Below, piece after piece: positions 29,830-62,315 of a DNA stretch of 64,000 nucleotides (position 1 is the first letter of the stretch; each line of letters begins with the position of its first letter). This DNA comes from Oligoflexales bacterium (GTDB lineage: Bacteria; Bdellovibrionota_B; Oligoflexia; Oligoflexales; Bog-1112), in the NCBI GenBank assembly GCA_045105515.1, contig JBGCDR010000131.1:1-64000 (forward strand). The letters run 5' to 3'. The translations under genes and the position numbers were made by a program. The notes below the pieces were generated by a model. The model had not been told where the DNA came from. It was given only the letters and a program-made list of their open reading frames with translations, and did no database searches.

Positions 29830-31515
<1,686 letters not shown>

Positions 31516-31519
31516 GATT

Positions 31520-38596: not shown

Positions 38597-38604
38597 AATG
38601 CCTC

Positions 38605-42538: not shown

Positions 42539-45115
42539 TCAGTTGGATTCTTTTTCTGAAAGAACAAGGAATTGCAAAGCATCCCATTTATTAGGATGCT
42601 TTTTGAAAGCTTCCAATACTGCCATCGTGTCCGGTGCATTTGAGGGACTCATCCAGCGATCGTACTTGGTTTGCCTGTAGCGAAATGCTCCCTGTTTGGT
42701 CTTGCTCTTGTTCATGTAATAGATGTCGGCATACTGACCCTTCTTTGTCCTGAGGGAGCGGATGATTTCCTTGTTGGCTCCATCGAGCAAAGATGATTTT
42801 TCAGAAATGTAGTCCACATTGTCAGAACTCATTTGCATAAACACAAAGTTATCTGCAACGCCCCAAAAAGCCTTTCCAACCTCAAGATCGAAGTAATTTT
42901 GTGGTCTAGGTGTTAACGTGATCAACCAACATCCGCGTTTACGCATGGTCTCTGCAAAATCGATCGCGAAGTCGCGAAAAGCTGGATTATTACGCCCAAG
43001 CATGGCGAATTCTTCCATCACAAGAATACCTTGTCTCCCCTGATTCTGCGGCAGGCTCAAAATGCATCGGATTTCTTCGATAACAGCCATGGTCATTAGA
43101 GTTTGTAGGGTTGGATCGTTGTCCAAGGCATCGAGGTCATAGACATAGAACAGGGTTTGTTTATCCAGACTTTCCGATTTTCCAAGAGTAAAAAATGATG
43201 CATAGGTGCCATCACCGTAAAAGGGTTTTAGCTTTGAAACAAGGGTTTCAATAAGTTCTTTATCTCGACTATTTTTTCCTTGTACTAAACTCCCAAGTTC
43301 CACTACAAAATCATTCATATCGATGGCCACTGGCTGGTTATTCTTTTGTTTGACGAACTCCCCGTCCACAAATTCAAGGCCATGCCTATCAAATTTCTTG
43401 AGGTAGGCAATTTTCAGTGCTTTATTAATCAAGGTCTGATGCTCACTTTCCACTGCGAAACTTGGAGAAGTGAGTTTGAGAGCCATGGTGATCATTTTTG
43501 TTAGGAAAGCGATCTTTTCTTCGTTGTAGATCCCTCTAAAAGGTGAAAATGGAATCTGTTGATCTCTTTTAAATATCGTCAAATCACCGTCGTAGTATTG
43601 GCTCAACATTCCATAGGAAGATTTTTTATCAATGATAAATACAATGGGTTCAGGATCAATCTTCTTGATGGATTGTAGCCAATCTACCACAAAGGCGGAT
43701 TTACCAGATCCAGTATCAGCAAGGATCACCGTGTGGTTAGATGTTTCATTTTCCAGAAGAGAAAAGGGTATGAGGTTGTTTTCTCTTGAAAGATGAATTC
43801 CAATTGGTTGTTGAAACCCTCTAAAGGAATCGAAGAGAGGAATAAAGTTAGCACAATCCGATCTTAGGATTCGAATGGCTCTACGAGTAGAAAAATCAGC
43901 GTCAGGTGTATAGTTTAGGGGCAAAGCATTGGCCCACAAACCTAAGCCGATATCTGTTTCCTCAATGATTTCACATTCAAGATGATTGTGAAAAATGTGG
44001 CAAATCTTGCGGGTTTTGTCCTCCAATTTTTCATCGGTTTCACCATCGACGATAATGCAAAAGGTCATGTGTAAAACTCGATCATCCCGAGCAAGCCTTT
44101 CTTGAACGTTTCTTATTTCCTCCTTTTGAACCTTTGCCTTCGGTGTTGCGGCATTCTCAAGAAAAAATTCTTTCGTTCCAAGAAATTTTTTTACGCTTTG
44201 AGGGCTAGGGAATGAAATATTGATGGCAATACGGAATGGAAAATCAAGACCTACAAAATAGGCCATACCACCAGGATAAGCGTAAGAAGGAGATGTTTTT
44301 AGGCTGAGAACCCGTGATCTAATGCCTTCAGTTTCAATTCCTTGATATTCTAGCTTTGGCGTGCTGAAAATGAGTTGTTCTGATATGGGGAGATTTTTAT
44401 TGAGTGGGGCAAAACTCCTTTTAAAGCAAGATTTAGGATTAAAAAACCGTCTTAAATTGTGAACCAAGGCTTCATCATCCAAGGTGCTAATCGATAGCTC
44501 AGAGTTTTCTTGAAAATCCTTGAGTAAATGATTGAAGCTGTCCAGTTCTGCTCGTAATCTTTCGGTCTCCTTCTTCAAGAGCTTATGGTCATCACTAAGA
44601 TCCTTTAACTTGATAGAAGTGCCTTTCTGCAAGAAATATCGAACTGATACTAGCAAGTTGCGCTTGAGCGGGCTTGTAGGAGAAGAGCTAGAGCAAGCTT
44701 CCATCAAGAGTTTTGATTTTTCCCCATACAGCAGTTTTGATACTGGATGAGATTTTTTAAAGCTAGTATCCAGTCCGGCAATTTCAGGATCAAGAGGCGA
44801 ATAGTAGGAGCAATCGTAGAGAATCTGTAACGCACAGTTTTCTCGCAATGAAAACCAGTTCTTGATGGAATCAACCGCTCTAATGATCTGTTTTTCTGTC
44901 ATGGGCTCATGTTCAAGAAGCTTAATTTTAAAAACAGCACCTAAGGAACCGTCTTTCATTTGAAAAATCTTATATGCTGGAAGGTAGTCTTCATATGGAA
45001 GCAGAGCTCCAAGGGATTCAGGCCGTTCAAATAGCCCCTTGGTAAAACTTTCACGTTTGTTGAGCGCAGCCTCGATTTCTTTTGGTAGGCTTGTTTTAGT
45101 CATGCCTACCTCCAT
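42539..45115 (-). CDS. traC: TraC/VirB4-like T4SS ATPase
   Basis: LLPY N-terminus; ADTGSGKS, IIDKKSSY, EEF and MRKRG motifs; 858 aa. Confidence 0.88.
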   Translation of the reverse strand: MEVGMTKTSLPKEIEAALNKRESFTKGLFERPESLGALLPYEDYLPAYKIFQMKDGSLGAVFKIKLLEHEPMTEKQIIRAVDSIKNWFSLRENCALQILYDCSYYSPLDPEIAGLDTSFKKSHPVSKLLYGEKSKLLMEACSSSSPTSPLKRNLLVSVRYFLQKGTSIKLKDLSDDHKLLKKETERLRAELDSFNHLLKDFQENSELSISTLDDEALVHNLRRFFNPKSCFKRSFAPLNKNLPISEQLIFSTPKLEYQGIETEGIRSRVLSLKTSPSYAYPGGMAYFVGLDFPFRIAINISFPSPQSVKKFLGTKEFFLENAATPKAKVQKEEIRNVQERLARDDRVLHMTFCIIVDGETDEKLEDKTRKICHIFHNHLECEIIEETDIGLGLWANALPLNYTPDADFSTRRAIRILRSDCANFIPLFDSFRGFQQPIGIHLSRENNLIPFSLLENETSNHTVILADTGSGKSAFVVDWLQSIKKIDPEPIVFIIDKKSSYGMLSQYYDGDLTIFKRDQQIPFSPFRGIYNEEKIAFLTKMITMALKLTSPSFAVESEHQTLINKALKIAYLKKFDRHGLEFVDGEFVKQKNNQPVAIDMNDFVVELGSLVQGKNSRDKELIETLVSKLKPFYGDGTYASFFTLGKSESLDKQTLFYVYDLDALDNDPTLQTLMTMAVIEEIRCILSLPQNQGRQGILVMEEFAMLGRNNPAFRDFAIDFAETMRKRGCWLITLTPRPQNYFDLEVGKAFWGVADNFVFMQMSSDNVDYISEKSSLLDGANKEIIRSLRTKKGQYADIYYMNKSKTKQGAFRYRQTKYDRWMSPSNAPDTMAVLEAFKKHPNKWDALQFLVLSEKESN

Positions 45116-45461
45116 GGATATGCCCTGGTGCTTTTTTCTTTCTGGGCTTTTTGATGACGAGAGGCTTTAGTTTTTCAGCTACTTGCCAGTGTGACCTTGT
45201 TACAACGGTTCGAACCCATCCACCGCGAAAATAATCACCATTGGGTAGCTCATGGGGGTGCACCCAGATATCAGCGATATGAGGCTTAGTCCTAACAGGC
45301 ACCAACAAGGGGTGGTCCACCTCATCAAGAGCCTCTTTGATTTGACCTACATTGTCGTAGTCTGATCGCTTTTCAAGAAGGTTAAGGCTGGGCGCTCTGT
45401 TCATCGCGCATGAGTTTAGAGCTAGGATTGCTGTGCATCCTAGTAGCTTGAAGTGAATCAT
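45096..45461 (-). CDS. traV: TraV-like lipoprotein
   Basis: Lipobox LNSC; P.RT.P..A.IWV.P...NGD motif. Confidence 0.75.
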   Translation of the reverse strand: MIHFKLLGCTAILALNSCAMNRAPSLNLLEKRSDYDNVGQIKEALDEVDHPLLVPVRTKPHIADIWVHPHELPNGDYFRGGWVRTVVTRSHWQVAEKLKPLVIKKPRKKKAPGHIHGGRHD

Positions 45462-45470
45462 CGGTGACCC

Positions 45471-46706
45471 CTATTTTAAAAGATTGCTAAGAAATGAGAT
45501 CCCACCTCGTTGGTCGAAATGGCGATTAAAATACCAATTGGGAAGAGAAACTGGCTCTTGAATGATGAGCCAAACTTCTTGGCCTGAGCCTACATTGATG
45601 GTTGGAAGGAGTTTTTCTGCATGTTTGAGATACCAGTTAGTAACTGTTGCCGCTGCGTTGCTAGCACCAGAAGCTGCTATATATCGGCCTTGGGAGCCGG
45701 TGATGTTCATCGTAGAGCCGCCATTTGAACCCATTGTCGTGGTAGTCTGGGCCTGACTCACAGCTTTGCCGATGCCATCGACGACTGATGCCAGAAAGGC
45801 CATACTTGCCACTCTGTCCTGTTTACTATTGAGTGCACCCATCACAGCAAAGGAGTTGTCTTTGCCATCCGCAATATAGCCGCTCAACTTCCTCTCAAAC
45901 GACCTCCCTGATTTAGAGACGCAAGAAATTTTGGTGGCCTGCATTTCAACCCGTTCAATGGACATGTTGCCAGTAGACTTTGCAATAATGAAGCACCCCG
46001 ACAGATCAATACGACTCTTATTTGGTCCAATAAAGGCATAATCAGCCTGAAGAAGCACTGGGAGTGCCTTGCCTTCGGGGGCTTCAATTCCAGTGAGCAG
46101 CTTTGCTTTCACGAAGGATCCCGAAGGAAGCCTAACTCCAAGCTTGGCTGGTGTTTTACTTGCTTGAACCGGAAAAGAAATGATTTCTGGGCCTTTTCTC
46201 TTTGTGCGCTTGCGCCTCTTTGAGGATTTCGAGGCAGAGGTGACAGTCGATGGTCCGTTAGAAACAATTGTCGTAGGAAAATTCTTCAAAGCATTTGAAA
46301 ATTCTGGTGTTGAGAGAGGAGAAAGTGCTTCCCTTTGTTTAGTCCCCATATCCGTGGTAAGTGGCTCTTTATTTTCTGCTCTGGGAGTATCCCGTTTGTT
46401 AGCAAGTAATTTTTCATATTTGGCTATGATCGCTGTTATGGATTCCAGTTTTTCCTCAAGATCCTCGACCTTATCGTTGTAAATTTTGTCCTTTCTTTTG
46501 TAGAGGTCATTGTTTCTAGAAATGACCCTTCCTGAGTTGAAACTATGCTCCTTATTTTGGTATGTGATAATCTTAGTGTCATGGTGTTTGCTGAATAGAT
46601 ATGTAGCTAAAAGTAGTATAAATCCTAAGGCCAAGAGTAAAATACCAGGTTTCTCACGGACTTTTAGAATCGCCTGCAGTAGGTCAGACTTATTAAGATA
46701 TTTCAT
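45471..46706 (-). CDS. traB: TraB/VirB10-like T4SS core protein
   Basis: Single TM, coiled coil; LPSGSFVKAKLLTGIEA and DLSGCFI motifs. Confidence 0.85.
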   Translation of the reverse strand: MKYLNKSDLLQAILKVREKPGILLLALGFILLLATYLFSKHHDTKIITYQNKEHSFNSGRVISRNNDLYKRKDKIYNDKVEDLEEKLESITAIIAKYEKLLANKRDTPRAENKEPLTTDMGTKQREALSPLSTPEFSNALKNFPTTIVSNGPSTVTSASKSSKRRKRTKRKGPEIISFPVQASKTPAKLGVRLPSGSFVKAKLLTGIEAPEGKALPVLLQADYAFIGPNKSRIDLSGCFIIAKSTGNMSIERVEMQATKISCVSKSGRSFERKLSGYIADGKDNSFAVMGALNSKQDRVASMAFLASVVDGIGKAVSQAQTTTTMGSNGGSTMNITGSQGRYIAASGASNAAATVTNWYLKHAEKLLPTINVGSGQEVWLIIQEPVSLPNWYFNRHFDQRGGISFLSNLLK

Positions 46707-46715
46707 GATGACCTC

Positions 46716-47498
46716 TTACTTACTATTTGTGATAGGAGCTACAGGTAAACTGATGGAATAGTAAACCGAAGTGGGCTTGGCTACGATTCGCAATAGTGTC
46801 GAATTGAGCTGAGGCTCTTGTTTTTGCTTTGGGTAAAGGATATTGGAATCAGATTGCGATAATAAGGCTACATTGGGTCTCCCCAAGGTAAGACTCTTGA
46901 CATCAAGGGCATAGGTTTTGTCTTTGCTGTTGTTGGTCACTTTAAAAATATACCCGTGGAACTTTGGTCCAGTGTAAACCTTTACTAAACGAGCGGTAAT
47001 ACCATCAATTCCAGTCCTAACCGTTTGACTAAGAGTGCGTGCTTTGTAGCCAATGACGCGATCCACTCGGATCATAGCCTTCATCAACTCGACCTCGGAA
47101 ACACTGCCTCCTCGACTCGATCTTGCAATAGGATCAATGCGGAGGCTTTTGGCCTTGAGATCATAGAAAGTATTGGTTGTTTCATGAAGTTTAGAAACTA
47201 CTGTGTTGAGCTTGGCATTGACCACCACATCATTTGCTAAGATGAAAGTAACGTTACTACGAGCCTTCTTTGAACGAGGCTTAATGGAAAGGATTCGGTA
47301 ATCTGGCTTATTGGGATCTGCTGGCTTGATCTCAAATTTACTGGCCTGGGTGATCGTCTTAACTTCCTCGTCAAAGCGAAGAAGCGTCGAAACTCCATAG
47401 GATATACTGATATTTTCCCTTTCAGAACCATAGTAAATAGTTTTTGCTTGAACCGAGGAACAGAGCAGCATTGCTAGTAACGGAATGACTTTTGTCAT
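46716..47498 (-). CDS. traK: TraK/VirB9-like protein
   Basis: Signal peptide; ELMKAM motif; position between traE and traB. Confidence 0.65.
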   Translation of the reverse strand: MTKVIPLLAMLLCSSVQAKTIYYGSERENISISYGVSTLLRFDEEVKTITQASKFEIKPADPNKPDYRILSIKPRSKKARSNVTFILANDVVVNAKLNTVVSKLHETTNTFYDLKAKSLRIDPIARSSRGGSVSEVELMKAMIRVDRVIGYKARTLSQTVRTGIDGITARLVKVYTGPKFHGYIFKVTNNSKDKTYALDVKSLTLGRPNVALLSQSDSNILYPKQKQEPQLNSTLLRIVAKPTSVYYSISLPVAPITNSK

Positions 47499-47510
47499 AC
47501 CTACTCCTTA

Positions 47511-48224
47511 CTATTGAGGTTTTGAGATCGTTTTGCGGGTCTGAAAGCTTTCTAACTTAGACCAAGACAAGGAGGTTATTTGAAGATACCAGCGTTTTTC
47601 TCGATCTGGTGGCACCAACTTGATGGTCATTTCAACAACTTGATCTTCATGTCCTAGGGATTGTCCAGAAGCATAGAAATCAGCTCGAACGAATGCTGTA
47701 ATAGAGTAATAGCCATCAGAATTGGAAATGATCTTCTTGCTTTTAACTCGGAAAATTTGTGCTAGATCTTCATGCTTTGTCTGCTGAATCCACTCCTTGG
47801 AATCGGCAGCAAACTGAATTTTGAGTTCAGGACTCATGAACCGCTTCAAGGACTCATATTGTTCCGTGATGATATGGGCATTGATATTTCCAAGGGTGCT
47901 CAAGAAATCATTCACAGCATCGTTGACATACGAATCTGGCACAGACTGAGGAGTAGCTGTAGTAAAATCCAGAACCCCAGGGGCTAAAATGTATTCCTTT
48001 ACCCGTAACTGTTTGTATAGTGATGATATTTCCATCCTTGAAATTGCAAAATAGCCAATAAAGAGCAGAGCCAGCAGACCCAGGAGGTAAGTGAGGATAA
48101 GCTTTTCTCGAAGAAGTGCTGCTCGATAAGAAATGTACTTAGGTAATGATTGAAAATTGGTCTTTGATTTGTTTGGTGGATCGCTTGTTTGTTTATGGAA
48201 GTTTTTTTCTTTTGGTCCAATCAT
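47511..48224 (-). CDS. traE: TraE/VirB8-like protein
   Basis: Single TM then NTF2-like pattern; position after traL. Confidence 0.65.
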   Translation of the reverse strand: MIGPKEKNFHKQTSDPPNKSKTNFQSLPKYISYRAALLREKLILTYLLGLLALLFIGYFAISRMEISSLYKQLRVKEYILAPGVLDFTTATPQSVPDSYVNDAVNDFLSTLGNINAHIITEQYESLKRFMSPELKIQFAADSKEWIQQTKHEDLAQIFRVKSKKIISNSDGYYSITAFVRADFYASGQSLGHEDQVVEMTIKLVPPDREKRWYLQITSLSWSKLESFQTRKTISKPQ

Positions 48225-48232
48225 TTAGGCTC

Positions 48233-48544
48233 CTAATCTGAGTATTTTTTCTTTCCCCCTGGATTGATAATACCGGGAAGATTCATTCCAAAATTCTTGT
48301 AGGGGTAGTGAAAGTAGATCCCTTTTTTGTTTCGTCTTCTGACATAGGGGCCGACACCTAACGTAAAGATCATTGATAGCAGCATCAGCTGCCAGGAATT
48401 GATGACGATGCCAAATAACAACAATGCCGCTAGGGCGGCGAAGACTTCCCCAAGTTCGAAATAATCAAAGACTGTTATGGGCTTGTCGACAGTTTGTGAT
48501 ACTTTCGTGGAGTACTTCTGCCTCATTGAATCGTAGTTATGCAT
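48233..48544 (-). CDS. traL: TraL/VirB3-like protein
   Basis: VDKPITVFDYFELGE, two TMs, G..FHY..K.FG pattern. Confidence 0.7.
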   Translation of the reverse strand: MHNYDSMRQKYSTKVSQTVDKPITVFDYFELGEVFAALAALLLFGIVINSWQLMLLSMIFTLGVGPYVRRRNKKGIYFHYPYKNFGMNLPGIINPGGKKKYSD

Positions 48545-48698: not shown

Positions 48699-49679
48699 AT
48701 GAAAAAAAAGTTTTTAGGCGTTAGCTATTTTGTGCTTTTTGGGCTTGTTGCAGCATATGCATTTGAGCGATGGGCGGTGCGATCAGAACTTGAAACATTA
48801 AAAGTAAAAGGGGAACTGATTAAAGTTGAGGGTGCTTCGATGCATATTCAATGTCTTGGATCTGGGAGTCCAACAATAATTCTTGAGTCAGGACTGGGTT
48901 CTGACATGACATCTTGGGATAATATAGTTGGTCCAGTTAGCAAAATGACAAGAGTTTGCAGGTATGATAGGTCTGGGTATGGTTTAAGTGAAGCCAATCC
49001 TTCAGAAGCAACGATCGAGAATCAATCTCATCGTTTAAAAGAGCTTTTAAATGCTGCTAGCATAAAGGGACCCAAGATTCTAGTCGGTCACTCGGCCGGA
49101 GGACTCTACGCTCGTCATTTTGCTACGCTCGAACCAGCTGTTGTCGGTATGGTTCTCGTTGATGCTTCTGCAAGCCTTTCAAAAGAAGACTTCGAAAAAT
49201 TTTTCACAATACCAACTTCTTCCAAGATCAAAGGAAGACTTAATTTGATTGCCTCAAAGTTTGCATTAATCAGAGTGAAAAGTTGGTTTTTACCCAACCC
49301 TAAAGATATTCATCCAAAATGGTATCCAAATCAGAACATCTTTAGCAGTCGATACATTGAAGCTTTGTTTCAAGATGACAATATTTACTTAAGCGTTCTA
49401 TCCGCACCAGAGCCAGATCTTCACAATATTCCAATCGTAGTGATCTCAAGAGGGAAGAACATGATGAATAATGGCTCAAAAAAGAGCGTATTTGATATTG
49501 CTTGGGATGGTTGGCAAAAAAAACTACTCAATCTTTCATCGCATAGTTCGCAAATTATTGCTGAAGAGAGTGGGCATGGGATTCAAGACAATCAACCCGA
49601 ACTCATAGTAAATGCGATAGAGAGCCTTCTGAAAGAGGGTGCAACACCTCCAAGAGCGATAAACCACTTGAATCCTTGA
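48699..49679 (+). CDS. Alpha/beta hydrolase (cargo)
   Basis: YDRSGYG, GHSAGG and SGH motifs; N-terminal TM. Confidence 0.88.
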   Translation: MKKKFLGVSYFVLFGLVAAYAFERWAVRSELETLKVKGELIKVEGASMHIQCLGSGSPTIILESGLGSDMTSWDNIVGPVSKMTRVCRYDRSGYGLSEANPSEATIENQSHRLKELLNAASIKGPKILVGHSAGGLYARHFATLEPAVVGMVLVDASASLSKEDFEKFFTIPTSSKIKGRLNLIASKFALIRVKSWFLPNPKDIHPKWYPNQNIFSSRYIEALFQDDNIYLSVLSAPEPDLHNIPIVVISRGKNMMNNGSKKSVFDIAWDGWQKKLLNLSSHSSQIIAEESGHGIQDNQPELIVNAIESLLKEGATPPRAINHLNP

Positions 49680-49704
49680 GATCAAATAAGAAAGAAGAAA
49701 TGGC

Positions 49705-50202
49705 ATGGAAATAAGATTAGAAAATAGTGGCGATCATGAATCCATTCGAAATGTGAATGACAACGCTTTTGAAACATCCTCAGAATCTGAAATCGTGGAC
49801 AAACTACGATCTTTAGGTGAATTGTTACTGTCTTTGGTAGCAGTAGTTGATGGTGAAATTGTGGGTCATATAGCATTTAGCCCCATGAATATGAATGGTT
49901 TCAAGACGAAGTTTGTTGGACTCGGGCCAATGGCTGTTATCAGATCCCAACAGCGTTATGGAGTCGGATCCGCACTTGTAAAGGAAGGGATCAAAAATCT
50001 TAAGGAGCAGGGGTATTCAGCTGCTTTTGTGTTGGGGCATCCAGAATACTATCCTCGTTTCGGTTTTAAGCCTTCTTTTTCAAATTTTGAAATAAAGTCT
50101 AAGTACGATGTTCCTGATAACGTATTTATGGCATTTGAACTACAAGAGGGTGCCCTCTCGGGAGTATCTGGACTGGTTCAATACTCCAAAGCCTTTGGAT
50201 GA
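49705..50202 (+). CDS. GNAT N-acetyltransferase (YhbS-like, cargo)
   Basis: LGPMAV...QRYGVGSAL and VLGHPEYYPRFGF motifs. Confidence 0.9.
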   Translation: MEIRLENSGDHESIRNVNDNAFETSSESEIVDKLRSLGELLLSLVAVVDGEIVGHIAFSPMNMNGFKTKFVGLGPMAVIRSQQRYGVGSALVKEGIKNLKEQGYSAAFVLGHPEYYPRFGFKPSFSNFEIKSKYDVPDNVFMAFELQEGALSGVSGLVQYSKAFG

Positions 50203-50243: not shown

Positions 50244-50617
50244 CTATTTCATGCTGTGGAAAATAGACCCTCCTCCTCCATCTGACATATCAAAGATGTT
50301 TTTAATCCACATAGGGACCGTTCCCATGATGATGGCTCCCATGATGCAAACGATGGCCATTGCAAAGCGCTGTTCCTTGAGGTTCCATCCAGCGCCAAGA
50401 ATAGCCATGCCTGCTAAGATCCTGGCACCAAATTTAAAGAGAAAGCTGTCTACGATATGAAGGAGCGTCCCGGCTGCGGTCAGCTTACTAATGTCATCGG
50501 ACCCAGGAATCGTGCCAGCAGCTAAGGCAATACCTGCATGGAGAAGTCCAAAGATAAAGATCATAGTTAAGGATGGAAACGACCATCCTAACGAAGGAAT
50601 TTTTTTTTTTTTGCCAT
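50244..50617 (-). CDS. traA: TraA/VirB2-like pilin, frameshifted at an A13 tract in the leader
   Basis: Signal peptide ending ALA plus two hydrophobic helices; RBS-linked ATG 50617 is out of frame with the body by one base. Confidence 0.6.
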
Positions 50618-50626
50618 AGGGCGCTC

Positions 50627-51355
50627 CTATTTGGTTGATAAAGTATTAAGAATGCTCTTGGCTTTTTGGTATCCATTGATTCGATAGACTAGCTTTTTGC
50701 TAGTATCAGCCACAAAGAGCACAGGCCAGGAATTGATCTTCTTTCTAGAAATTTCCTGAGCACTCGCTTTGACCACCGCAAATGGAACTGGAAAATTGGG
50801 TTTCTTGCTGTCGATTTGCCTTACTTCTACGAAGTAGCCCATTTTTTGTAAATCTCTTGCTGTAACCATCATCCGTTCACAATGAGGACAGGTAGAATCG
50901 AAATAGAGGCGAAATCTAAAACGTTTAAGATCCAAATCTATGGGTTTTATTTTGCTTAATTTTTCAGTAAGGATTTCTCTTTCTTTTGGTTTGAGAGTCT
51001 TTGAATTTTTGGCCAAGTATGTTTTCATGTGATCGTGAAGCTTTACCATCAGAGTGTTCTTCTTCTCAATCAAGGCAAACCAACGCTTGATATTCTGATC
51101 AGTTGGATTTCTTGCCAATTCCATAAACGGTTTAGGTGGTTTATGATCTCCTTCCTCAAAAAATTCGTCGTGCTTAGGGTTGGTGTATTTTTCCCAGTCA
51201 AATTGCTTTTCTTGTGGTATCTTTGGCTCTATCTTAGTCGGTGACGGTTTGGCTGATGTTTTTTCATTCCAATAGTCAATTCTTCCTCCAAAATAGTCAA
51301 AGCCCAGAGCCGTAGAACAAAAAAGCAGCATTACAATGAGCCATGGTCTTCGCAT
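50627..51355 (-). CDS. Periplasmic thioredoxin-fold conjugation protein (TraF/TrbB/TrbC-like)
   Basis: Signal peptide; CPHC and WP motifs. Confidence 0.65.
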   Translation of the reverse strand: MRRPWLIVMLLFCSTALGFDYFGGRIDYWNEKTSAKPSPTKIEPKIPQEKQFDWEKYTNPKHDEFFEEGDHKPPKPFMELARNPTDQNIKRWFALIEKKNTLMVKLHDHMKTYLAKNSKTLKPKEREILTEKLSKIKPIDLDLKRFRFRLYFDSTCPHCERMMVTARDLQKMGYFVEVRQIDSKKPNFPVPFAVVKASAQEISRKKINSWPVLFVADTSKKLVYRINGYQKAKSILNTLSTK

Positions 51356-51369
51356 ATTTCCCCCTTTTG

Positions 51370-52890
51370 CTAGGTAATTGCTTCAATTTCACTTTCATCA
51401 ATGACTCCTTTCTGGGCAAGAGCAATACACTCATCCTTCAAGGTTGTAGGCATTCTTTTGTCTCCTAAGTCTGATTTTTCCAGATATTCAATGATTGCTA
51501 TACGCCCTGTGATTCCCCCAGTGCATTGCACGCATCCATCAGGATTTGCTCGAAATAGCCCATTTTCTAATTTTATCCTGCATTTTGGACAAATGCGTCG
51601 AACAAGGCGTTGTGCAACCGATAGGCGTAGATTGGTTTTGATCGTAAATTCGTCAACACCAAGGTTAAGCAAGCGATCCACAACTTCCCTGGCTCCATTT
51701 GCGTGAACTGTGGAGAGGACCAAGTGGCCTGTTGAAGCGAGTTTCATGCTGAGATCTGCTGTTTCTTCATCTCTTATCTCTCCTAGAAGGATAATATCTG
51801 GATCTTGGCGCATAAGTGCTTTTTGAAAGTCATTGAAGTCCTCCTTAGTTTCTACATTTGATTGGGTGATGCGTTCTAGACTCTTTTCGACTGGGTTTTC
51901 TAGAGTTGAAATGTTTTTACCGAGTCGATCCATTTCTTCTAGCAGTGCATATAGGGTCGTTGTTTTTCCACTTCCCGTCGGGCCAGAAATGATGATCAAA
52001 CCTTCTCGTTTTAGAATGTTGCACTTGAGCATCTCGATTTTATCTTTACTTAAGCCAATATCTTGCAAGCTCAATTTTTGTTCCTGGTACTGGATGCGTA
52101 ATACGATCTTTTCACTGCCACCTGCTGTGGGCATAGAATTTGCCCGCACATCGATGGCCATGGACTTAAAACATGCCCTCGCATCTTGAGGTTTTGAAAT
52201 AATTGCTAGGTCCAGGTTTAGTATCCATTTGAGTTTGTTGGTGATTGGTTCAGTGTGTTCAGCCTCTATGACCTTCCAGTCTTGTAGCGCTCCATGGGTA
52301 CGAAACCGGATTAGGAATTTATCTGCAAATGGTTCGAAATGAATATCACTGGCCTTTAGTTTGCAGGCAGCTATAAAGCACTGATGAATGAGCTGTGTGT
52401 AAGGGTTTTCTTCAGAAATTCTTTGGTCACAAGTTAGATCACCCGCAAGGACGATGTTTGATTTTTGTTTCTTATCGTCATGATTCTCTCCCTGTAAAAG
52501 TCGAAATACAGACCCTTTGACCCTAAGAAGGGTCACTTCTAGCTCGAAGAATGCCTCAACAGACTGAATAGTCACATCCGAAAAATGATCAGCTACTAGA
52601 GTTAACCTCCTTGTGGTTAAATCAATTGCTATAACGTTGAACGGATTCAACTGTTCTTGAAGCGTTAAAGGTACTTTGGACTTCTCTGTCTCCAGTTCTT
52701 TGAATGATTTGTTGCACTCTGGCTTAATGAACTGAATCAATAGACTGTCGAGGGTTTGTTGATTTATGTAGCCCAATTCGACCATCAGCCTACCAACCTT
52801 CTCTTTGCGGTACTGATAGATCTTTAGGATAGTTCGCAGTTGCTCTTTTGTGCAATGATGTTTTGAATGAACGAATTCAGCAAATTTCAT
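51370..52890 (-). CDS. GspE/PilB-family secretion ATPase with degenerate MshEN-like N-terminus
   Basis: ASDIHFEP, GPTGSGKTTTLY, RQDPDIILLGEIRD, TGHLVLST and CPKC/CVQC motifs; TGATG coupling to upstream gene. Confidence 0.9.
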   Translation of the reverse strand: MKFAEFVHSKHHCTKEQLRTILKIYQYRKEKVGRLMVELGYINQQTLDSLLIQFIKPECNKSFKELETEKSKVPLTLQEQLNPFNVIAIDLTTRRLTLVADHFSDVTIQSVEAFFELEVTLLRVKGSVFRLLQGENHDDKKQKSNIVLAGDLTCDQRISEENPYTQLIHQCFIAACKLKASDIHFEPFADKFLIRFRTHGALQDWKVIEAEHTEPITNKLKWILNLDLAIISKPQDARACFKSMAIDVRANSMPTAGGSEKIVLRIQYQEQKLSLQDIGLSKDKIEMLKCNILKREGLIIISGPTGSGKTTTLYALLEEMDRLGKNISTLENPVEKSLERITQSNVETKEDFNDFQKALMRQDPDIILLGEIRDEETADLSMKLASTGHLVLSTVHANGAREVVDRLLNLGVDEFTIKTNLRLSVAQRLVRRICPKCRIKLENGLFRANPDGCVQCTGGITGRIAIIEYLEKSDLGDKRMPTTLKDECIALAQKGVIDESEIEAIT

Positions 52891-53918
52891 CAAAAACCCC
52901 TGCATGCTGCTTTAATTCCGGCCAACCATAGATAGGCAAGACCACCAGTTCCTGCATCAATGGTGCAATTGGAGCGTTGCCAAACAACATATAGGAACTT
53001 AGTGGGTTTACCTGAGAACCTTCCTAGTTCATTGACAGCATTGACTCTCAATACAGCAATATTTTGTCCCTCCTTAAAACTGCTCGATAACTGTGGATAG
53101 ATCATTTGCCATTTGTCACTCCAGTTACTGGAAACGCTTCGAAAGACATCACCCCCAAGGCTTTTTATTCTAGAAGCAATCATCAGCGATGCTGTGGTTT
53201 GATCAGAGGATATGGTGGTTCCGGTTCTGGGTAGGTGAATGCCCCAACCTGTGCATACAGGTGCATCTGTTGGCGGATACTTCCACATGCGACCCATCCA
53301 TGGGTTTGAGCACATGGGTTCGATGCCACCACCGGTTACTCCCCAGTGCCCAGTAGCAGAAGAAGCGGCCCCCTTTAACAAACATGCCTTGGGGCTGGCT
53401 GCCCAGGCTTTGAATTGAGGATGCCACATATCAGCAAAACCAGTACGCCAGTTACTACTTAAATGCTCGCTTGCTGCTGAGAAGCAGAACAGATCGGGCA
53501 CCCCACCGCCACAGGGGAGCCCTGCAAAGACTTCCTGAGTGAATGGAACATTGATGACGTGGGCATGGTAGGAGAAGGCTCCGTTATCGCTCTCAGCAGC
53601 AAAGGGAAGCCATCCCCCCATACGCTTCAATTGGAAATTGACTCCCGGCAATCCATAAAACATGGTTTCTCTGGGATGATTAACAACCTCAATAAAATAT
53701 TTCGGCAAATTATAGCTTACATGAGCACAAGGCCATGGTGGTAAAGGAAACGGGCTTGGGCACATAGCAAACTTAACTCGGAGACCAAATTCGCGGCTAA
53801 ATAATGGAGTATTAACCACGTCACAAACATTAGGAAAATTAAAGGCACTTGTCAGCGTGCTAATGTTTAACAAACCTACAATGGCACCGACTCTCGCTAA
53901 CCTGCTTTTTAAGGGCAT
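52890..53918 (-). CDS. traU: TraU-like cysteine-rich periplasmic protein
   Basis: Signal peptide; many Cys; WG..PRTG, WQMIYP and VWQR..C motifs. Confidence 0.7.
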   Translation of the reverse strand: MPLKSRLARVGAIVGLLNISTLTSAFNFPNVCDVVNTPLFSREFGLRVKFAMCPSPFPLPPWPCAHVSYNLPKYFIEVVNHPRETMFYGLPGVNFQLKRMGGWLPFAAESDNGAFSYHAHVINVPFTQEVFAGLPCGGGVPDLFCFSAASEHLSSNWRTGFADMWHPQFKAWAASPKACLLKGAASSATGHWGVTGGGIEPMCSNPWMGRMWKYPPTDAPVCTGWGIHLPRTGTTISSDQTTASLMIASRIKSLGGDVFRSVSSNWSDKWQMIYPQLSSSFKEGQNIAVLRVNAVNELGRFSGKPTKFLYVVWQRSNCTIDAGTGGLAYLWLAGIKAACRGF

Positions 53919-54310
53919 GATCTTTGCCTTTTTTTGACCGCTATTCCTCCAGATTTAACAAGATTGTCTATGATTTTCTTGCGAAGCTTAGTCAGAGCTT
54001 CGGTTAATCTTTTTTTGACCAAAGCTTCATCGAGCCCCAAATCTTTCGCAATTTCGGAGCAGGTATAGTCTTCCCAGTAACGTAAACGTATGATTTCTTG
54101 TTCTTTGGAAGGCAATTCTTTTAGAATGTGGTGTAGGTCATTTTTTAGCTTAGGGCTCACCAAAAATCTGATGTTTTGATCATAATCGTCCTGCTGATTT
54201 TCTTTACGTAAATACTGATCAAGGGCTTGTTTGTCAGTAAGGCGGTTCAATGATGCTTGATCCATGTAAGATACCGGTGAATTCAAGTTATGCATGTAAG
54301 CCTCCCGCAA
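53909..54310 (-). CDS. Sigma-70 region 4-only HTH protein
   Basis: LPSKEQEIIRLRYWEDYTCSEIAKDLG...AL.KLR. Confidence 0.8.
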   Translation of the reverse strand: MREAYMHNLNSPVSYMDQASLNRLTDKQALDQYLRKENQQDDYDQNIRFLVSPKLKNDLHHILKELPSKEQEIIRLRYWEDYTCSEIAKDLGLDEALVKKRLTEALTKLRKKIIDNLVKSGGIAVKKRQRSCP

Positions 54311-54701
54311 TTAGTGAAAGTTTTTGATCTTCGTTTCTATAGGAAATATTAATCTTGTATGTGAATCGAGAGTTGGACGGGACAAGACATCCATTCTTAG
54401 CGTGAAGATGTTGATGGTTGTAGGACCATAGGACACGCTCTATTTCTTCACCAAGATGTTTTGCGTTTAAGTCACCAGCTACTGAAGCTTCTACTCGGAT
54501 CTGTTGGTCTCCTCTTCGACTGATGAGTGAGATTAAAAATTCAACTTTGGGGTGCTTTTTCCTCATCTGAAAGAAGTCACGATCAAAAAACATCATCAGC
54601 TCATTCATGCTGAGATCCTTGGTCTCTTTGAAGTAGACACCTTCACAACTCACCGACAGCGGTAAATTATTCCGGATCTGCACAACGGTTCGCATGGGCA
54701 C
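54288..54701 (-). CDS. Hypothetical protein
   Basis: 137-aa ORF with GGAGG RBS, first gene of the tra region. Confidence 0.65.
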   Translation of the reverse strand: MPMRTVVQIRNNLPLSVSCEGVYFKETKDLSMNELMMFFDRDFFQMRKKHPKVEFLISLISRRGDQQIRVEASVAGDLNAKHLGEEIERVLWSYNHQHLHAKNGCLVPSNSRFTYKINISYRNEDQKLSLIAGGLHA

Positions 54702-54842
54702 CTCCTCTTGAGATCTACGATATTTCTCCCTACCTACGGTAGGGTGGCTTTTTTTTGGGTGTCCACCCTCATCTTTGACTTGATGAACCTTAATAATGAC
54801 AGGGACATTGGGCTAAATCTTGGTGGTTGATCTCTCGGAGGG

Positions 54843-54874
54843 AAAAATGGAGTCGGGAGGGCAAAGCCCGACCC
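54843..54874 (-). terminator. Possible intrinsic terminator after the 54889 gene
   Basis: Minus-strand GGGTCGGG...CCCGACTC stem followed by CATTTTT. Confidence 0.4.
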
Positions 54875-54888
54875 TTTCAATAAAAGAG

Positions 54889-55404
54889 CTATCCAGCAGA
54901 TGCTTCTATGTCGTCATTGTTGCCCTTTGCTAAAAGTTCCTGTTGAGCTTTCAAAAGTTCTTTGGCGCTAATTCTTGCTGACAAATTTTCTACAAAAAAC
55001 GTTCCTAGCTTTTTTAGTGCTCGATCCCTTGTGTTGGTTATGGCAGTACGAGATACCTTAGTTTCCTTTGCTAGTTGCCTCTGGCTTTTTCCCTCCCAGA
55101 AGATGGCGTCCAAAATTTGTTGTTCCTTCTTGGAAAGGCGCTTGAGGTACTGTCTAATTTGCTTCTGTAGTCTAGGGTAATGATCCTCAGTATCCATTTC
55201 CTTCACTATTTCCCCGAATCCACGGGAGCAGTTTTCGATGTGATTAGGAGAATGGAGAAGAGCCTCCTGTCGTGATACATCGACCTCAGCTTGCAAAAAT
55301 TCTTCCCAAGTCGATAGGCTCCAATTGCGTTTGAGTTCCATGAGTTTGGCATTTGGATAAACGTTACCATCTGCATCCAACCAAGGTTTACGATCTATGC
55401 TCAT
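54889..55404 (-). CDS. Sigma-70 region 4-type HTH regulator
   Basis: LSKKEQQIL..IFWEGKSQRQLA...VSR.AI...DRALKKL; AGGAGG RBS. Confidence 0.8.
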   Translation of the reverse strand: MSIDRKPWLDADGNVYPNAKLMELKRNWSLSTWEEFLQAEVDVSRQEALLHSPNHIENCSRGFGEIVKEMDTEDHYPRLQKQIRQYLKRLSKKEQQILDAIFWEGKSQRQLAKETKVSRTAITNTRDRALKKLGTFFVENLSARISAKELLKAQQELLAKGNNDDIEASAG

Positions 55405-55465
55405 ATGAACCTCCTGTTGTTCTAAAGTTTGACTCCCAGTTACCGTGTGGGAATCAATTCTTTGT

Positions 55466-55564
55466 TATGAATTTTTTATATGGAATCTTCTTGCAAACAA
55501 ATGGGTAATTCATATAGATTTGACCGAACGCCAAGCTGGTTTTGTGTAATTCATATAAAACCAG
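55466..55564. promoter_or_regulatory. Operator-like repeats in divergent promoter region
   Basis: GTAATTCATATA at 55505 and 55546; inverted partial copy TATGAATT at 55466; CTGGTTTT/AAAACCAG inverted repeat. Confidence 0.55.
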
Positions 55565-55583
55565 TTTAGAAACGTAGATACAG

Positions 55584-56075
55584 GTGCTTATGAAGGAATT
55601 GATTAAACAGCGAGTTCAGAATCAACTCAGGCAGTTTTTGAAAGACTACCGTAATATCAATGGATTAAGCGCCGAACAGGCTGCGGAGCAACTTGAAGTA
55701 GAGATTGCAACTTACCGCATTCTTGAAGGCCGCAAGCCCGCGAACCGGGTCGTTTCGGTCCTTGAATACCTAGAAAAGATTGCGGCGCTCAATAAAATGA
55801 GCCTATCTTCTTTCATCAACTACCTCGAAAGATCTGGCCGCACTGAAAGCGGCGTTAATCGCATGAAACGCAAACTCTTTGAGTGGGAGAAGGATCTTTT
55901 AGAAAAATTTGATTTTGTTGGGATTCCACTTCGCAATCGGTTTATGAAGGGGTTTTTAAGCAAGGACAAAGGCGAAGTTAAGGAAATCTTAACCTGTCTA
56001 ACTCGAATAGTGTCACTGCCCGCATCAAAGCGTAAGGTGCTTTTTGAATTAGTGCGTGAAATGGGGACTAAATGA
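55584..56075 (+). CDS. XRE/Cro-CI-like HTH regulator
   Basis: LKDYR...LSAEQAAEQL.V...TYRILE.GR pattern. Confidence 0.75.
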   Translation: MLMKELIKQRVQNQLRQFLKDYRNINGLSAEQAAEQLEVEIATYRILEGRKPANRVVSVLEYLEKIAALNKMSLSSFINYLERSGRTESGVNRMKRKLFEWEKDLLEKFDFVGIPLRNRFMKGFLSKDKGEVKEILTCLTRIVSLPASKRKVLFELVREMGTK

Positions 56076-56443
56076 GAAGACGTAAAATCATCATTGTCGA
56101 TGATGAAAAAGACTACAGAGAAGGCTTATCGGAGTTTTTGGCCAGAGATGCAGATGTTATAAGCTATTCTCACCCTGATGAATTCGCTGAATCCCATAGT
56201 GATGCAAGCTCCCTTGAGGGGGTATATCTCATTATTCTTGACTACCGTTTTGACAACTTCGATGCTCATGATAAGGATCTCATGACCTATATTCGAGATG
56301 ATCTTGCCTATCGAAATAGGCTCGTTTTATGGAGTCTTGAGGATGATTTCCCCGAAGATTTTAAAGAACAATTTGATGGCATTTTGCAAAAAAAACTTAT
56401 GACTTTACCCGAGATTGAACAATGTATGGAATCAAAAAAATAA
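56072..56443 (+). CDS. Single-domain response regulator (receiver only)
   Basis: IIIVDDE, IILD, WS and K positions; 123 aa. Confidence 0.75.
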   Translation: MRRRKIIIVDDEKDYREGLSEFLARDADVISYSHPDEFAESHSDASSLEGVYLIILDYRFDNFDAHDKDLMTYIRDDLAYRNRLVLWSLEDDFPEDFKEQFDGILQKKLMTLPEIEQCMESKK

Positions 56444-57561
56444 CCCTAGCAGTGAGTTTGATTATGATGACAGCAATTGCTTCAGCTAAAACAAAATATT
56501 TGGTTGTCGGTGAAAAAATCATATCCAACAACCCATGGCGTAATGAACTAATCAAAGGACAATACCGTTTTGCAGTTTCAGAAGCGATGCAGGCTCACAA
56601 GAAAAAGTATCCCAAAAGTAGCTTACAGTTATTAGAGAGCTTTGATGATGGGCCAAATGAGGGCTTTGAACTTGCAGAAAAAAGGGACGCCCTTGGAGTT
56701 GTTGGGTATCTTTATTCTATGGATGCTTTTGAGGCTTCACAGGTAGCCTTAAAGCGGAAGATTCCATATTTGTCCCCTGTGTCACCTCTGGATTCGCTCA
56801 AGAATTCATTTGCTTACTCCATGGCAAATTCTCATACGCAACTTCTTCAAAAATATAAGGAAATTGCTCAGACGAAAGAGTTTAGTAATCCATCCATCGT
56901 CCTTTTGCCTGAGACTTTTTTGCCAAATTATGAGTACGAAAAGCTCTATAGAAAAGCGTTTAAGGTGACGGATACTCTTAAAGGCAATTCCTCTGAGTTG
57001 TGGCAAAAACTTGAAGATCAGCTGAAAAAGTCTCCAGAGAACCAGATCATTAATGTTCTTTTTGCAGGCTTTGCTTTTGAGCAAATGGAACTCGCAGCAA
57101 TGCTAAGTACCGGATCCTATGCAGATCGAATCAAAATTATAGCCCATTCTCAGTGGTATTATTGCCACAAAATTCTGGGAGAGAATTTTACCAAAAATTC
57201 AAAAAATATCTACGTAGTCACCGATTACTTTGATGTGCCAGTACTGCCTCAGATAAAAGAAGAGCCTCCAACATTTAGTCTTGCAGCGTATGACAGCCTC
57301 AATAAGATTTTAACATCAGCACCGAAAATAAAAGGCAATAGCCCAGAAGAGCCTATTGTATACGTACTGAGAGACATGATCGCTTATGCTCTTGAAGTAG
57401 CTGAAAATAGTAAAGATCGGGTTGAATTTGGCTATAAATATGGATCAGGACAGTATGAAGGTGCTTCAGGTTTTTATGAATTCAAGGACAAAGTGTCTAC
57501 ACGAAAGGTTTATTTAGGAAAATGGGACAACGACAGGATAAAGCCTATCAAAAAAATATAG
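56422..57561 (+). CDS. Periplasmic binding protein type I (LivJ-like)
   Basis: Signal peptide; GVVG..YS, IPYLSP and YEGASG...F motifs. Confidence 0.65.
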   Translation: MYGIKKITLAVSLIMMTAIASAKTKYLVVGEKIISNNPWRNELIKGQYRFAVSEAMQAHKKKYPKSSLQLLESFDDGPNEGFELAEKRDALGVVGYLYSMDAFEASQVALKRKIPYLSPVSPLDSLKNSFAYSMANSHTQLLQKYKEIAQTKEFSNPSIVLLPETFLPNYEYEKLYRKAFKVTDTLKGNSSELWQKLEDQLKKSPENQIINVLFAGFAFEQMELAAMLSTGSYADRIKIIAHSQWYYCHKILGENFTKNSKNIYVVTDYFDVPVLPQIKEEPPTFSLAAYDSLNKILTSAPKIKGNSPEEPIVYVLRDMIAYALEVAENSKDRVEFGYKYGSGQYEGASGFYEFKDKVSTRKVYLGKWDNDRIKPIKKI

Positions 57562-58847
57562 CTGAATACCTGCGAGCCCAGTTTAACCGACATGCAATCT
57601 TAACTGGTATTCTCCTTGTATTTATCAGCATTGTTGTTTTTGCTGCGTCCATAAAATTTTCAACAGATCGCTACATTGGTCGGATTTGTGAGGAAATGAG
57701 CCGTAGTGCGCGAATTTTGGTAGAAACATCACAGCTTGATTCTTATGAATCATATCATAAAGAAATTGCTGGTAAGCTTCAAAATGAATTTGGAATTAAA
57801 AATCTAGAAATCACGAAAGATAAGCCAAATAATAGCTGGAGCCAATATTCGCTAGGGCATTGTTTTGTAGAATGGCTACCTAGCTTGCAAGCAGCTTTCT
57901 ATTCCCCCACGCACTGGGCTGGTAATAAAGTATTTGTTAGAGGAATTATTGACATACAATTTTTTCGTAGTGATTTAATTTTACTTATAATTGCGATATG
58001 TCTAGCTTTGGTCGCTTGCTATTTCTTTGGAACGAGATCACTTCTTAGAGGCATTCGGGACAATATTTCTAGTCCTTTGCACGAAGTGTGGGAGGGAGTC
58101 AAGTCCGGGAATAAGCCAAAAAATCTTGAAATAAAGGAACTTCGAGATCTTTGGGCTTCCTTAGTTGAATACAAAGAGCTCACCCTTATTCGTCACAGGA
58201 TGCTTCTTGCTAAAGAATATTATCACGAGCTGAAGTCTCCAGCCTATTACCAATACAATCAGCTTAAACGGTTGACTCTCATCAATGATCCAAACAAGCA
58301 GCAAGAGATGATCTCTGGAACTCTGCTTAGGGCCGATGAGTTAATTGGTAAAATGGAGAAAGCTCTAAAGAAGATAGCCACAGACGATTATGCCAAGCAC
58401 CCAAAGCAGGTTGATCTAAGAAAAATAATTGACCCTAAAATGAAAAATGTCACGATTCATGGCAAATCTTTTGCTTTTGGAGATAAGACGCTGCTTTGCA
58501 CCCTTTTGGAGAATCTTCATAGCAATGCTATGGACTCCTGTGGTGATCAGAAATTGATTCGGACAGTTATTAGCAACAGAAATCAAGATGTGGTCGTGTC
58601 GATTACGAATCCAGTACCAAATGGCACAGAAATAAGCATTGAAAAAGTTTTTACTAGCGGATTTACAAGCAAAACCGAGGGGACAGGCATTGGACTAAGT
58701 TTATGCAAGCACATAGTTGAGCTTCATAAAGGAACAATCGAAGCCAATTTTCATAAAAATAAATCCACATTTGAAATCAAATTTCAACTACCCGCAAGCA
58801 AGAGGAATGAAAATGCACCAACAGAGCGAAATATTTTACCATCCTGA
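57522..58847 (+). CDS. Sensor histidine kinase
   Basis: Two TMs; HELKSP, ENLHSNA and FTSK.EGTGIGL motifs. Confidence 0.85.
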   Translation: MGQRQDKAYQKNIAEYLRAQFNRHAILTGILLVFISIVVFAASIKFSTDRYIGRICEEMSRSARILVETSQLDSYESYHKEIAGKLQNEFGIKNLEITKDKPNNSWSQYSLGHCFVEWLPSLQAAFYSPTHWAGNKVFVRGIIDIQFFRSDLILLIIAICLALVACYFFGTRSLLRGIRDNISSPLHEVWEGVKSGNKPKNLEIKELRDLWASLVEYKELTLIRHRMLLAKEYYHELKSPAYYQYNQLKRLTLINDPNKQQEMISGTLLRADELIGKMEKALKKIATDDYAKHPKQVDLRKIIDPKMKNVTIHGKSFAFGDKTLLCTLLENLHSNAMDSCGDQKLIRTVISNRNQDVVVSITNPVPNGTEISIEKVFTSGFTSKTEGTGIGLSLCKHIVELHKGTIEANFHKNKSTFEIKFQLPASKRNENAPTERNILPS

Positions 58848-61178: not shown

Positions 61179-61181
61179 ATC

Positions 61182-62090: not shown

Positions 62091-62102
62091 AAGGAAAAGG
62101 AC

Positions 62103-62312
62103 ATGAAGGCATCTAAAGCTGCCCAGGAGAGGTGGGATAAAATCCCCTCTGAAGTGCGAATGAAAATTTTAAATAACGTTTGGTGTGGGAACTGTAGAAA
62201 GTCTGTAAATATCGATGTCGATAAGATGAGTACAGACAAATTTGGACTGATATTGAACGGGAAATGCATGAACTGCGATGGACCTGTAGCTCGTGTTATT
62301 GAAAAGGATTAA
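62103..62312 (+). CDS. Small zinc-ribbon protein
   Basis: WCGNC...GKCMNC...VARVIE; AAGGA RBS. Confidence 0.7.
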   Translation: MKASKAAQERWDKIPSEVRMKILNNVWCGNCRKSVNIDVDKMSTDKFGLILNGKCMNCDGPVARVIEKD

Positions 62313-62315
62313 GAC

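Follow-up and report, generated by a model that had tools for sequence, protein, structure and literature searches.

An extension-type ATPase encoded within the tra operons of F-like conjugative elements in Bdellovibrionota

Background

Several relatives of the PilT and VirB11 ATPases are known to serve type IV secretion systems (T4SSs). VirB11, TrwD and the TraG protein of pKM101 belong to the T-type class of mating pair formation systems (MPF_T); they are encoded in the T4SS operon and have no platform protein, a feature ascribed to T4SS ATPases in the available part of one paper (PMC6858323). The I-type systems (MPF_I) use the PilT-like TraJ, while F-type systems lack VirB11, according to the accessible portions of three reviews (PMC12857230, PMC4027160, PMC3548315). 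This report concerns an ATPase of the PilB/GspE class, the extension ATPases of type IV pili (T4P) and type II secretion systems (T2SSs), that is encoded inside the tra operon of an F-like integrative and conjugative element (ICE) in an Oligoflexales bacterium (NCBI GenBank assembly GCA_045105515.1, 461 contigs). The window analyzed is a stretch of 64,000 nucleotides, positions 1 to 64,000 of contig JBGCDR010000131.1 (C131). In a family of F-like conjugation operons that spans the Bdellovibrionota, the ATPase gene belongs to the core set, and this association appears to be newly described, none having been found in print.

The closest described proteins are PilB, GspE and MshE (Geobacter PilB, 5TSG/5TSH; Thermus PilF, 5OIU; Vibrio GspE, 4KSR), with which the ICE ATPase shares the arrangement of N1D, N2D and C-terminal domain (CTD), a tetracysteine motif and a His box. 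Unlike theirs, its gene is not accompanied by genes for a platform, pilin, peptidase, stator or secretin, and N1D is absent from most of the family. VirB11 and its kin fall in the same superfamily but are distant in sequence and fold, whereas the ICE ATPase carries a zinc motif, sometimes an MshEN domain, and stands in an F-like T4SS. TraJ of R64 and DotB show that T4SSs have adopted pilus-derived ATPases before, TraJ being nearer PilT (PMC4027160, in part) and DotB having been located under DotO (bioRxiv 2023.03.22.533729, in the portion available); these derive from the retraction (PilT) branch, whereas the ICE ATPase derives from the extension branch. An extension ATPase is also carried by conjugative elements with type IVb thin pili (R64 PilQ, PAPI-1), but these come with a full pil operon, including the PilR platform and PilN secretin, and the ICE has none of this. 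With the F-type class (MPF_F; F, SXT/IncC-like) the ICE has in common TraL, E, K, B, V, C and U, an F/TrbB-like thioredoxin, an H-like protein and a protein at the G position. It differs in having an ATPase of the VirB11 superfamily, in that TraW, TrbC, TraN and TrbI were not found, in a VirB4 branch apart from that of proteobacterial MPF_F, and in its coupling proteins, which are FtsK-type, fused VirD4-TraU or VirD4. No description of an F-like T4SS that has a PilB/GspE-type ATPase among its core components was found in literature listings and the opening lines of abstracts, subscription papers and supplements being places that may list such genes, and the available part of the paper on the F-type island of G. 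lovleyi (PMC3403914) does not mention one.

The ATPase and its relatives

51370..52890 (-): PilB/GspE-class ATPase, 506 aa (open reading frame, profile matches and predicted fold)
Domains of the ATPase: MshEN/GSPII-like N1D, residues ~1-135; N2D, ~160-270; RecA-like CTD with tetracysteine insert

The protein belongs to the PilT/VirB11 secretion ATPase superfamily (PF00437; Pfam match, E 1.3e-87). All the motifs of the complete extension ATPase that an earlier note on this DNA had reported were located in the 506-residue frame: Walker A at 303-310, the Asp box at E331/E335 (ENPVE here), Walker B at 365-371, the His box at H389/H396, arginine fingers at R249/R265, and CxxC pairs at 434-437 and 453-456 that are invariant among aligned relatives. 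The catalytic residues are invariant across 61 diverse members of the family. The tetracysteine zinc motif and the N1D identify an extension ATPase, N1D being absent from most of the relatives, and the closest relatives by sequence are the PilB/GspE/MshE extension ATPases (E 1.5e-61). An AlphaFold model (pLDDT 90.7, from a 47-row alignment) displays N1D, N2D and CTD, although PF05157 itself gave no match in the protein. The closest fold is that of PilB/PilF (Z 37.9, root-mean-square deviation 2.5, 341 residues aligned), followed by GspE, BfpD, PilT and DotB, with VirB11 (HP0525) far lower at Z ~19.5.

The top NCBIfam matches are GspE (5e-85) and PilB (6e-85), each below its curated cut-off (280 vs 630 bits and 286 vs 676 bits, respectively), and weaker matches are PilT (1e-39) and VirB11 (5e-15; TIGR02788, 55 bits with a cut-off of 250). 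Membership of PilB or GspE proper is ruled out by these scores together with the separate clade described below, and membership of the VirB11 family by sequence is ruled out by the 55 bits and by a fold match far below that to PilB. The TraJ/DotB type of MPF_I was likewise rejected, since the protein is not of the PilT-like branch, has the zinc motif and is not in an MPF_I context. Public databases label these ATPases TadA, PilB or GspE, which is a trap of mis-annotation.

Phylogeny against PilB, GspE and MshE, a check proposed in the earlier note, placed the element ATPases in a clade of their own within the extension branch, with support of 100/99 in a careful tree of 18 rows. The same clade was recovered in a quick tree of 40 rows (SH 92), apart from the host PilB, the host GspE, MshE and PilT/TraJ. 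The trees contained no VirB11 row, and the careful tree omits the long branches of CpaF, TraJ, PilQ and two plasmid type IVb ATPases and one ICE row, all of which are in the quick tree. Trees of the ATPase and TraC agree (rho 0.87; 27/58 splits; 61 pairs), an agreement that joint inheritance leads one to expect and that linkage alone predicts.

Conservation of the ATPase at its place

52890..53918 (-): traU, stop overlapping the ATPase start (PF06834, 1e-9)
50627..51355 (-): thioredoxin-fold TraF/TrbB-like protein, directly following the ATPase in the majority of loci that extend to it
50244..50564 (-): pilin-like small hydrophobic protein at the TraA position (no family match; assigned from position and conservation)

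As reported in the earlier note, the ATPase start overlaps traU as TGATG (52892-52888), the ATG and the traU stop having one base in common, and the gene precedes the thioredoxin-fold gene, after a gap of 14 nt, and then what its position suggests to be the pilin gene. The genome has five copies of this module, with the ATPase after traU in each and 57-65% identical to the window copy. TraC matches were obtained in 34, and TraU matches in 26, of 131 genomes from the phylum, and ATPase matches adjoin traU. In 40 fetched regions, two of which are host pilB loci, the ATPase occupies the standard place wherever the contig reaches, apart from the departures listed further below, including regions whose VirB4 is down to 22-27% identical.

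The co-occurrence of the gene with this T4SS, which the earlier note had wished to see checked, is close to complete. Scanning every species genome for traU yielded 80 loci, and the ATPase is next in 78 of them, the other two ending at a contig edge; nearly all these loci are titled Bdellovibrionota or unassigned, and the few metagenome-assembled genomes titled as other phyla include one (L139/L145/L147) that shares its coordinates with G088 of the phylum search. Among metagenome loci the ATPase follows traU in 63 of 66 (57 recognized by the core and 6 by the N-terminal part at a contig edge), the remainder being two at a contig edge and one broken fragment. The combined count for the fixed, coupled position is 141/146 loci. 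In 129 of 135 loci no more than 30 nt separate the traU stop from the ATPase start, and the two overlap in 102. The ATPase is constant across three DNA-processing modules, namely FtsK with a Replic_Relax-like protein, a VirD4-TraU fusion with a MOBP-like relaxase, and VirD4 with MOBF. No relative of traU and no pKM101-like VirB11 was found in viral contigs, and close relatives of the ICE family are absent from the PLSDB plasmid set.

The gene might instead be a passenger, or a relic that contributes nothing to transfer, and the canonical F-type plasmids that lack it, with no PF00437 match over cut-off in three of four checked (the fourth has two, ~50 and ~170 kb from traC), could be cited in favor of this, as could one split copy (L042). 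Against it stand the catalytic residues invariant in 61 members, the 141 of 146 loci with the fixed position, and a mean core identity that is higher for the ATPase than for TraC (48% vs 44%), so that we consider a passenger very improbable.

The relatives also provide an observation on the upstream gene. In many of the loci L083-L146, and at L033:1484-4477 and L037:1192-4191, a VirD4-like coupling protein is fused to TraU in one open reading frame of ~1000 aa, so that in a large sub-lineage a cytoplasmic ATPase is joined to a periplasmic protein.

The predicted platform-binding face

52189..52263 (-): N2D helix alpha2 and alpha2-beta4 loop, residues 210-234, the predicted platform-binding face

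An extension ATPase within a conjugation operon could be supposed to act on the T4P or T2SS of the host, either driving it for mating contact, as the earlier note had proposed, or damping it through mixed hexamers. The host has the machinery, its pilB-pilT-pilC genes and gsp cluster lying outside C131, and 41 of 41 genomes of the class have PilB/GspE-family matches. Residues at subunit contacts and catalytic residues are kept, and the long form of the ATPase keeps the N1D fold. Moreover, PilU joins the pilus machine without touching PilC, according to the available part of a preprint (bioRxiv 2025.10.30.685630).

What bears most directly on this possibility is the surface by which such motors would hold the platform protein. 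In the accessible part of their paper, Guilvout et al. modelled the platform protein PulF as contacting helix alpha2 of N2D and the loop between alpha2 and beta4 (PMC10790770). In the AlphaFold model of the ICE ATPase these are residues 210-223 and 224-234, with 219 in the helix and 230 and 232 in the loop, and the window copy has K, I and S in place of the canonical R219, E230 and R232. Of 59 platform-associated motors, 95-100% have the canonical R219, E230, R232 and D199, but these residues occur in 4%, 1%, 1% and 24%, respectively, of 67 context-checked ICE ATPases. An independent set gave D199, R219, E230 and R232 in 25, 25, 25 and 23 of 25 GspE/PilB proteins from outside the family versus 0, 6, 0 and 0 of 119 family members, although R249, R265, K221 and D236 are kept in all 119. 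As read from these alignments, the enzyme core is under selection and the platform face is not kept, and it is this loss that argues most strongly against the ATPase working through the host pilus or T2SS.

Several other results point the same way. About two thirds of the members lack N1D, the domain that binds the stator (PMC11656802, in the part available); the clade tracks TraC and is nested in neither host PilB nor host GspE; and the gene is translationally coupled in the tra operon. Borrowing of the host apparatus is thereby disfavored, and action on the host machinery in either form seems improbable to us.

As the earlier note had stated, PilC/GspF, a prepilin peptidase, N-methyl (type IV) pilins and a secretin are absent from the open reading frames of the element in family searches, the far end of the element lying beyond contig C131, so that extra unassembled cargo is possible. 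A broader search, for PilC/GspF/GspD/GspG/GspK/GspL and the prepilin motif, found no match in 10,253 open reading frames of 187 loci, and the same queries do match the host pil and gsp loci used as controls. The two observations that the earlier note had named as counting against its reading, a full T4P or T2SS gene set in the element and related elements lacking the ATPase, were thus looked for and not encountered. A stand-alone secretin-N fragment similar to host GspD lies at 4902-5651 of the window, outside the ICE.

The MshEN domain

52729..52887 (-): degenerate tandem MshEN motif, residues 2-54 (24+5+24), 10/14 scored positions kept

MshEN consists of two 24-residue motifs with a 5-residue spacer, as described in the available part of one paper (PMC5013675). 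The earlier note was right in seeing a degenerate MshEN motif in the N-terminus, but the half that it quoted is only the second, and the full tandem is present at residues 2-54. The spacing is thus that of MshEN, while the ligand residues and the profile score (NF053729, 24 bits with a cut-off of 38) fall short. The ligand residues scored were R9, L10, G11, L25, L29 and Q32 and R38, L39, G40, L54, L58 and Q61; in V. cholerae MshE numbering, the window copy has lost G11 (Ala), G18 (His), Q32 (Tyr) and Q61 (Phe), and Arg is changed to Lys twice. An Atlas search returns MshEN clusters.

The domain is found in ~40-45 of 131 unique members, with ~86-91 lacking it; the count missed about five long forms, and one row with unknown residues was dropped. 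Both trees require six or more changes between long and short forms of the ATPase. Of 39 long forms, 37 retain G11, 30 retain Q32, 13 retain G18 and none retains Q61, and the window copy ties for lowest; the expression used for recognition requires [LIVF]G[RKE], so that the counts for L39, G40 and R41 hold by construction. In the accessible part of one study (PMC12002112), G11I abolished binding of cyclic di-GMP (c-di-GMP) by MshE, and a Gly-to-Ala change there, in PilF GSPII-A, caused a 10-30 fold loss. Given these mutant data, the changes at G11 (to Ala), Q32 (to Tyr) and the other positions make c-di-GMP binding unlikely in the window copy, and it is possible in some long-form relatives, such as L079 and L083, which have 13 of the 14 scored positions and would be predicted to bind. 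Control by c-di-GMP, as suggested in the earlier note, is therefore disfavored for this ATPase, and it cannot be general in a family in which about two thirds of the members are without the domain. The MshEN domain would best be regarded as a dispensable add-on, and in the window copy as probably a weak binder or a non-binder. In the host itself, PilB (C34:47171-48877) has no MshEN motif detectable by eye, and GspE (C36:49193-51019) has a near-canonical one.

A second lineage on proteobacterial plasmids

A search of plasmids found an MPF_F plasmid of Pseudomonas with a GspE/PulE gene located between its traN and traG, and close relatives of this gene occur in 24 PLSDB records (EbN1 plasmid 1, pBVIE01, RPME01 and Pseudomonas VLB120-like plasmids). 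The four regions read have an extension-type ATPase followed by a thioredoxin/DsbA gene and no platform gene; in these MPF_F tra regions (L242-L245) the cassette is a lytic transglycosylase, a small unknown gene, the orphan GspE/PulE gene and DsbA. The plasmid and ICE ATPases are thus alike in extension type, in the thioredoxin/DsbA gene that follows, in the F-type tra region and in the change at D199 and R219, but the EbN1 copy has no N1D and the changes at E230 and R232 are milder in the plasmid proteins. Of 84 homologues 72 were scored, irrespective of genomic context: D199 is present in 1, R219 in none (Lys in 70), E230 in 22 and R232 in 17. The plasmid ATPases form a separate clade (99/100), and their union with the ICE ATPases is neither shown nor rejected (p-AU 0.198). 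In the quick tree the plasmid VirB4s nest among those of F-type plasmids without the ATPase, apart from the Bdellovibrionota VirB4s, which favors two separate associations of such an ATPase with a T4SS. The plasmid ATPase is annotated in databases, and a functional study was not found in the literature. Since this second lineage is present in cultured, non-pathogenic Proteobacteria, knock-out and binding tests are possible.

A candidate motor of the conjugation machine

42539..45115 (-): traC/VirB4, 858 aa, proposed docking partner (TIGR02746, 3e-56, below cut-off)

The earlier note had suggested a VirB11-like role in an F-type T4SS. The part of this suggestion that assigns the ATPase to the T4SS is supported by linkage, the separate clade and the loss of platform residues, and we consider a T4SS-dedicated ATPase to be likely. 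As to its function, the reading that we somewhat favor is that of a VirB11-like motor docking on TraC. In this view the conjugation machine would have a VirB11-type traffic motor of its own: the ATPase, forming a hexamer and turning over ATP as its family membership predicts, would dock under TraC and drive either pilus assembly or a switch to DNA transfer. It would descend from an extension ATPase that was captured from a T4P or T2SS, much as MPF_I captured the PilT-like TraJ/DotB. In pKM101, VirB11 residues Q8, R54, N55 and K58 contact the C-terminal domain of VirB4, according to the available portion of one report (PMC9259494), and R54-K58 lie in a helix that follows three strands and that is, by eye, the counterpart of N2D alpha2. 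The N2D alpha2 face, which by this topology would carry the VirB4-contact residues of pKM101 VirB11, may have been re-used. VirB11 and DotB offer a precedent, in that both dock on VirB4 with no platform protein involved.

A number of points weigh against this proposal. Docking on TraC is something that we infer, and canonical F-type systems work without VirB11, so that the need for one is unexplained. Profile alignment of the VirB11 N-domain with N2D was not significant (probability 0.1%), the mapping of the helix having been made by eye, and the stretch of TraC that matches the VirB11-contact helix of pKM101 is no more conserved than its flanks (0.59 vs ~0.65). The platform interface was defined with an AlphaFold model, and the residues that were lost might serve different functions. 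Some loci depart from the common arrangement: the whole traU-traK block is missing at L043, the order is rearranged at L058, L059 and L066, traU is ~34 kb distant at L039, the ATPase is split at L042, and tra genes are broken at L200. Finally, the loci share ancestry and some of them are duplicates (131 unique ATPases in all), and most were found by a traU query from one sub-lineage. TraC folded alone (pLDDT 87) carries no interface information.

The linkage, tree and interface-loss results would fit equally well if the ATPase were dedicated to the T4SS but had another partner, such as TraL, TraE, the TraG-position protein, the cytoplasmic tail of TraB, the pilin pool or the coupling protein and relaxosome, for example to power pilus retraction. 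Family searches of the window found no recognizable TraW, TrbC, TraN or TrbI, and, given the fixed order, every conserved gene of the operon has been assigned; a coupling-protein-like gene is also fused to traU directly upstream of the ATPase in many relatives. The single-sequence phmmer search for TraW/TrbC/TraN is insensitive, however, having missed TraU and TraH homologues as well, and EbN1 plasmid 1 carries both the ATPase and TraW/TrbC/TraN, which weakens the idea of the ATPase as a simple replacement for TraW/TrbC. A relaxosome partner is also at odds with the retention of the ATPase while the coupling protein and relaxase were swapped three ways. We consider a different partner within the T4SS unlikely, and the motor docked on TraC is the explanation retained here.

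The element and its other genes

31495..31519 (+): 25-bp attachment (att) core at the groEL 3' end, with identical copies beside related integrases on C105 and C404
31714..33129 (-): tyrosine integrase
34809-35528 (-): putative relaxase (a 34% identical relative matches Replic_Relax, E 4e-4)
35525-37060 (-): FtsK/SpoIIIE-type putative coupling protein
37070-38635 (-): TraG-position membrane protein (no family match; assigned by position)
38605-39906 (-): TraH-like protein (PF06122, E 0.004)
45096..48544 (-): traL, traE, traK, traB and traV (traL/E/K/V matches weak, below cut-off)
53909..55404 (-): two sigma-70 region-4-only proteins and one unknown, upstream, conserved in the genome's copies

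The integrase, att repeat, T4SS, coupling protein and putative relaxase identify the element as an F-like ICE integrated at groEL, and the T4SS has the MPF_F core (TraC, TraL/E/K/B/V, TraU, a TraF-like protein and TraH), several of the matches being weak or below cut-off. From the groEL 3' end, the order is integrase, methylase, putative relaxase, FtsK-type protein, TraG-position protein, TraH-like protein and traC-V-B-K-E-L, then the pilin-like gene, thioredoxin, ATPase, traU and the sigma-region-4 genes; in the direction of transcription the operon reads traU-ATPase-thioredoxin-pilin-traL-E-K-B-V-C-H-G. No recognizable TraG was found, the TraG-position protein having no family match and no similarity to TraG of EbN1. 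The FtsK/TcpA-type and Replic_Relax-like proteins (34809-37060) stand in for VirD4 and an HUH relaxase in this Gram-negative ICE. The att core recurs at C105:14147-14171 and C404:8178-8202, each time beside a related integrase, so that several elements may stand in tandem at the single groEL gene. No excision joint was found at the att site, the contigs from the sequencing run that cover att giving only groEL-end repeats of other organisms.

Two insertions in the tra operon, an IS5/ISNCY-like transposase with a CPT-like kinase between traC and traH (40131-42339) and a hydrolase with a GNAT protein on the opposite strand between the pilin-like gene and traL (48699-50202), may disturb co-transcription in this copy. 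A promoter scan gave a result below chance. Beside the sigma-70 region-4 genes, the region 53909-58847 has a divergent set of helix-turn-helix, receiver, periplasmic-binding-like and histidine kinase genes, and the kinase and sigma-54 response regulator families are present again in ~40 related loci. The cargo at 58717-62702 shows distant likeness to aminoglycoside acetyl- and phosphotransferases, GrpB, MepB and glyoxalase, all below the cut-offs of resistance families. The open reading frame at 62796-64000, which continues to ~65956 of C131, has just past the window edge what we take to be a reverse-transcriptase-like motif; it is apparently broken by a small transposase pair, and its in-window part has no family match.

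Conclusions

These results allow a broader, tentative proposal, to which we would give somewhat less than an even chance: after VirB11 and TraJ/DotB, there may be a third route to a T4SS traffic ATPase, in which a phylum-wide branch of F-like T4SSs regained a third ATPase by capturing an extension motor of type IV pili, which then lost its platform face and came to dock on VirB4, with the proteobacterial megaplasmids having taken the route separately and some members being gated by c-di-GMP through a variant MshEN domain. If this were true, DNA transfer would be tied, via c-di-GMP, to a signal of the predator's life cycle. The ICE family is common in Bdellovibrionota, with TraC matches in 34/131 genomes, and would provide an example of a pilus motor changing its partner that is visible at the level of residues. 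It would also represent natural F-like machines that keep a motor of the VirB11 superfamily, which bears on the question of what powers the dynamics of F-type pili.
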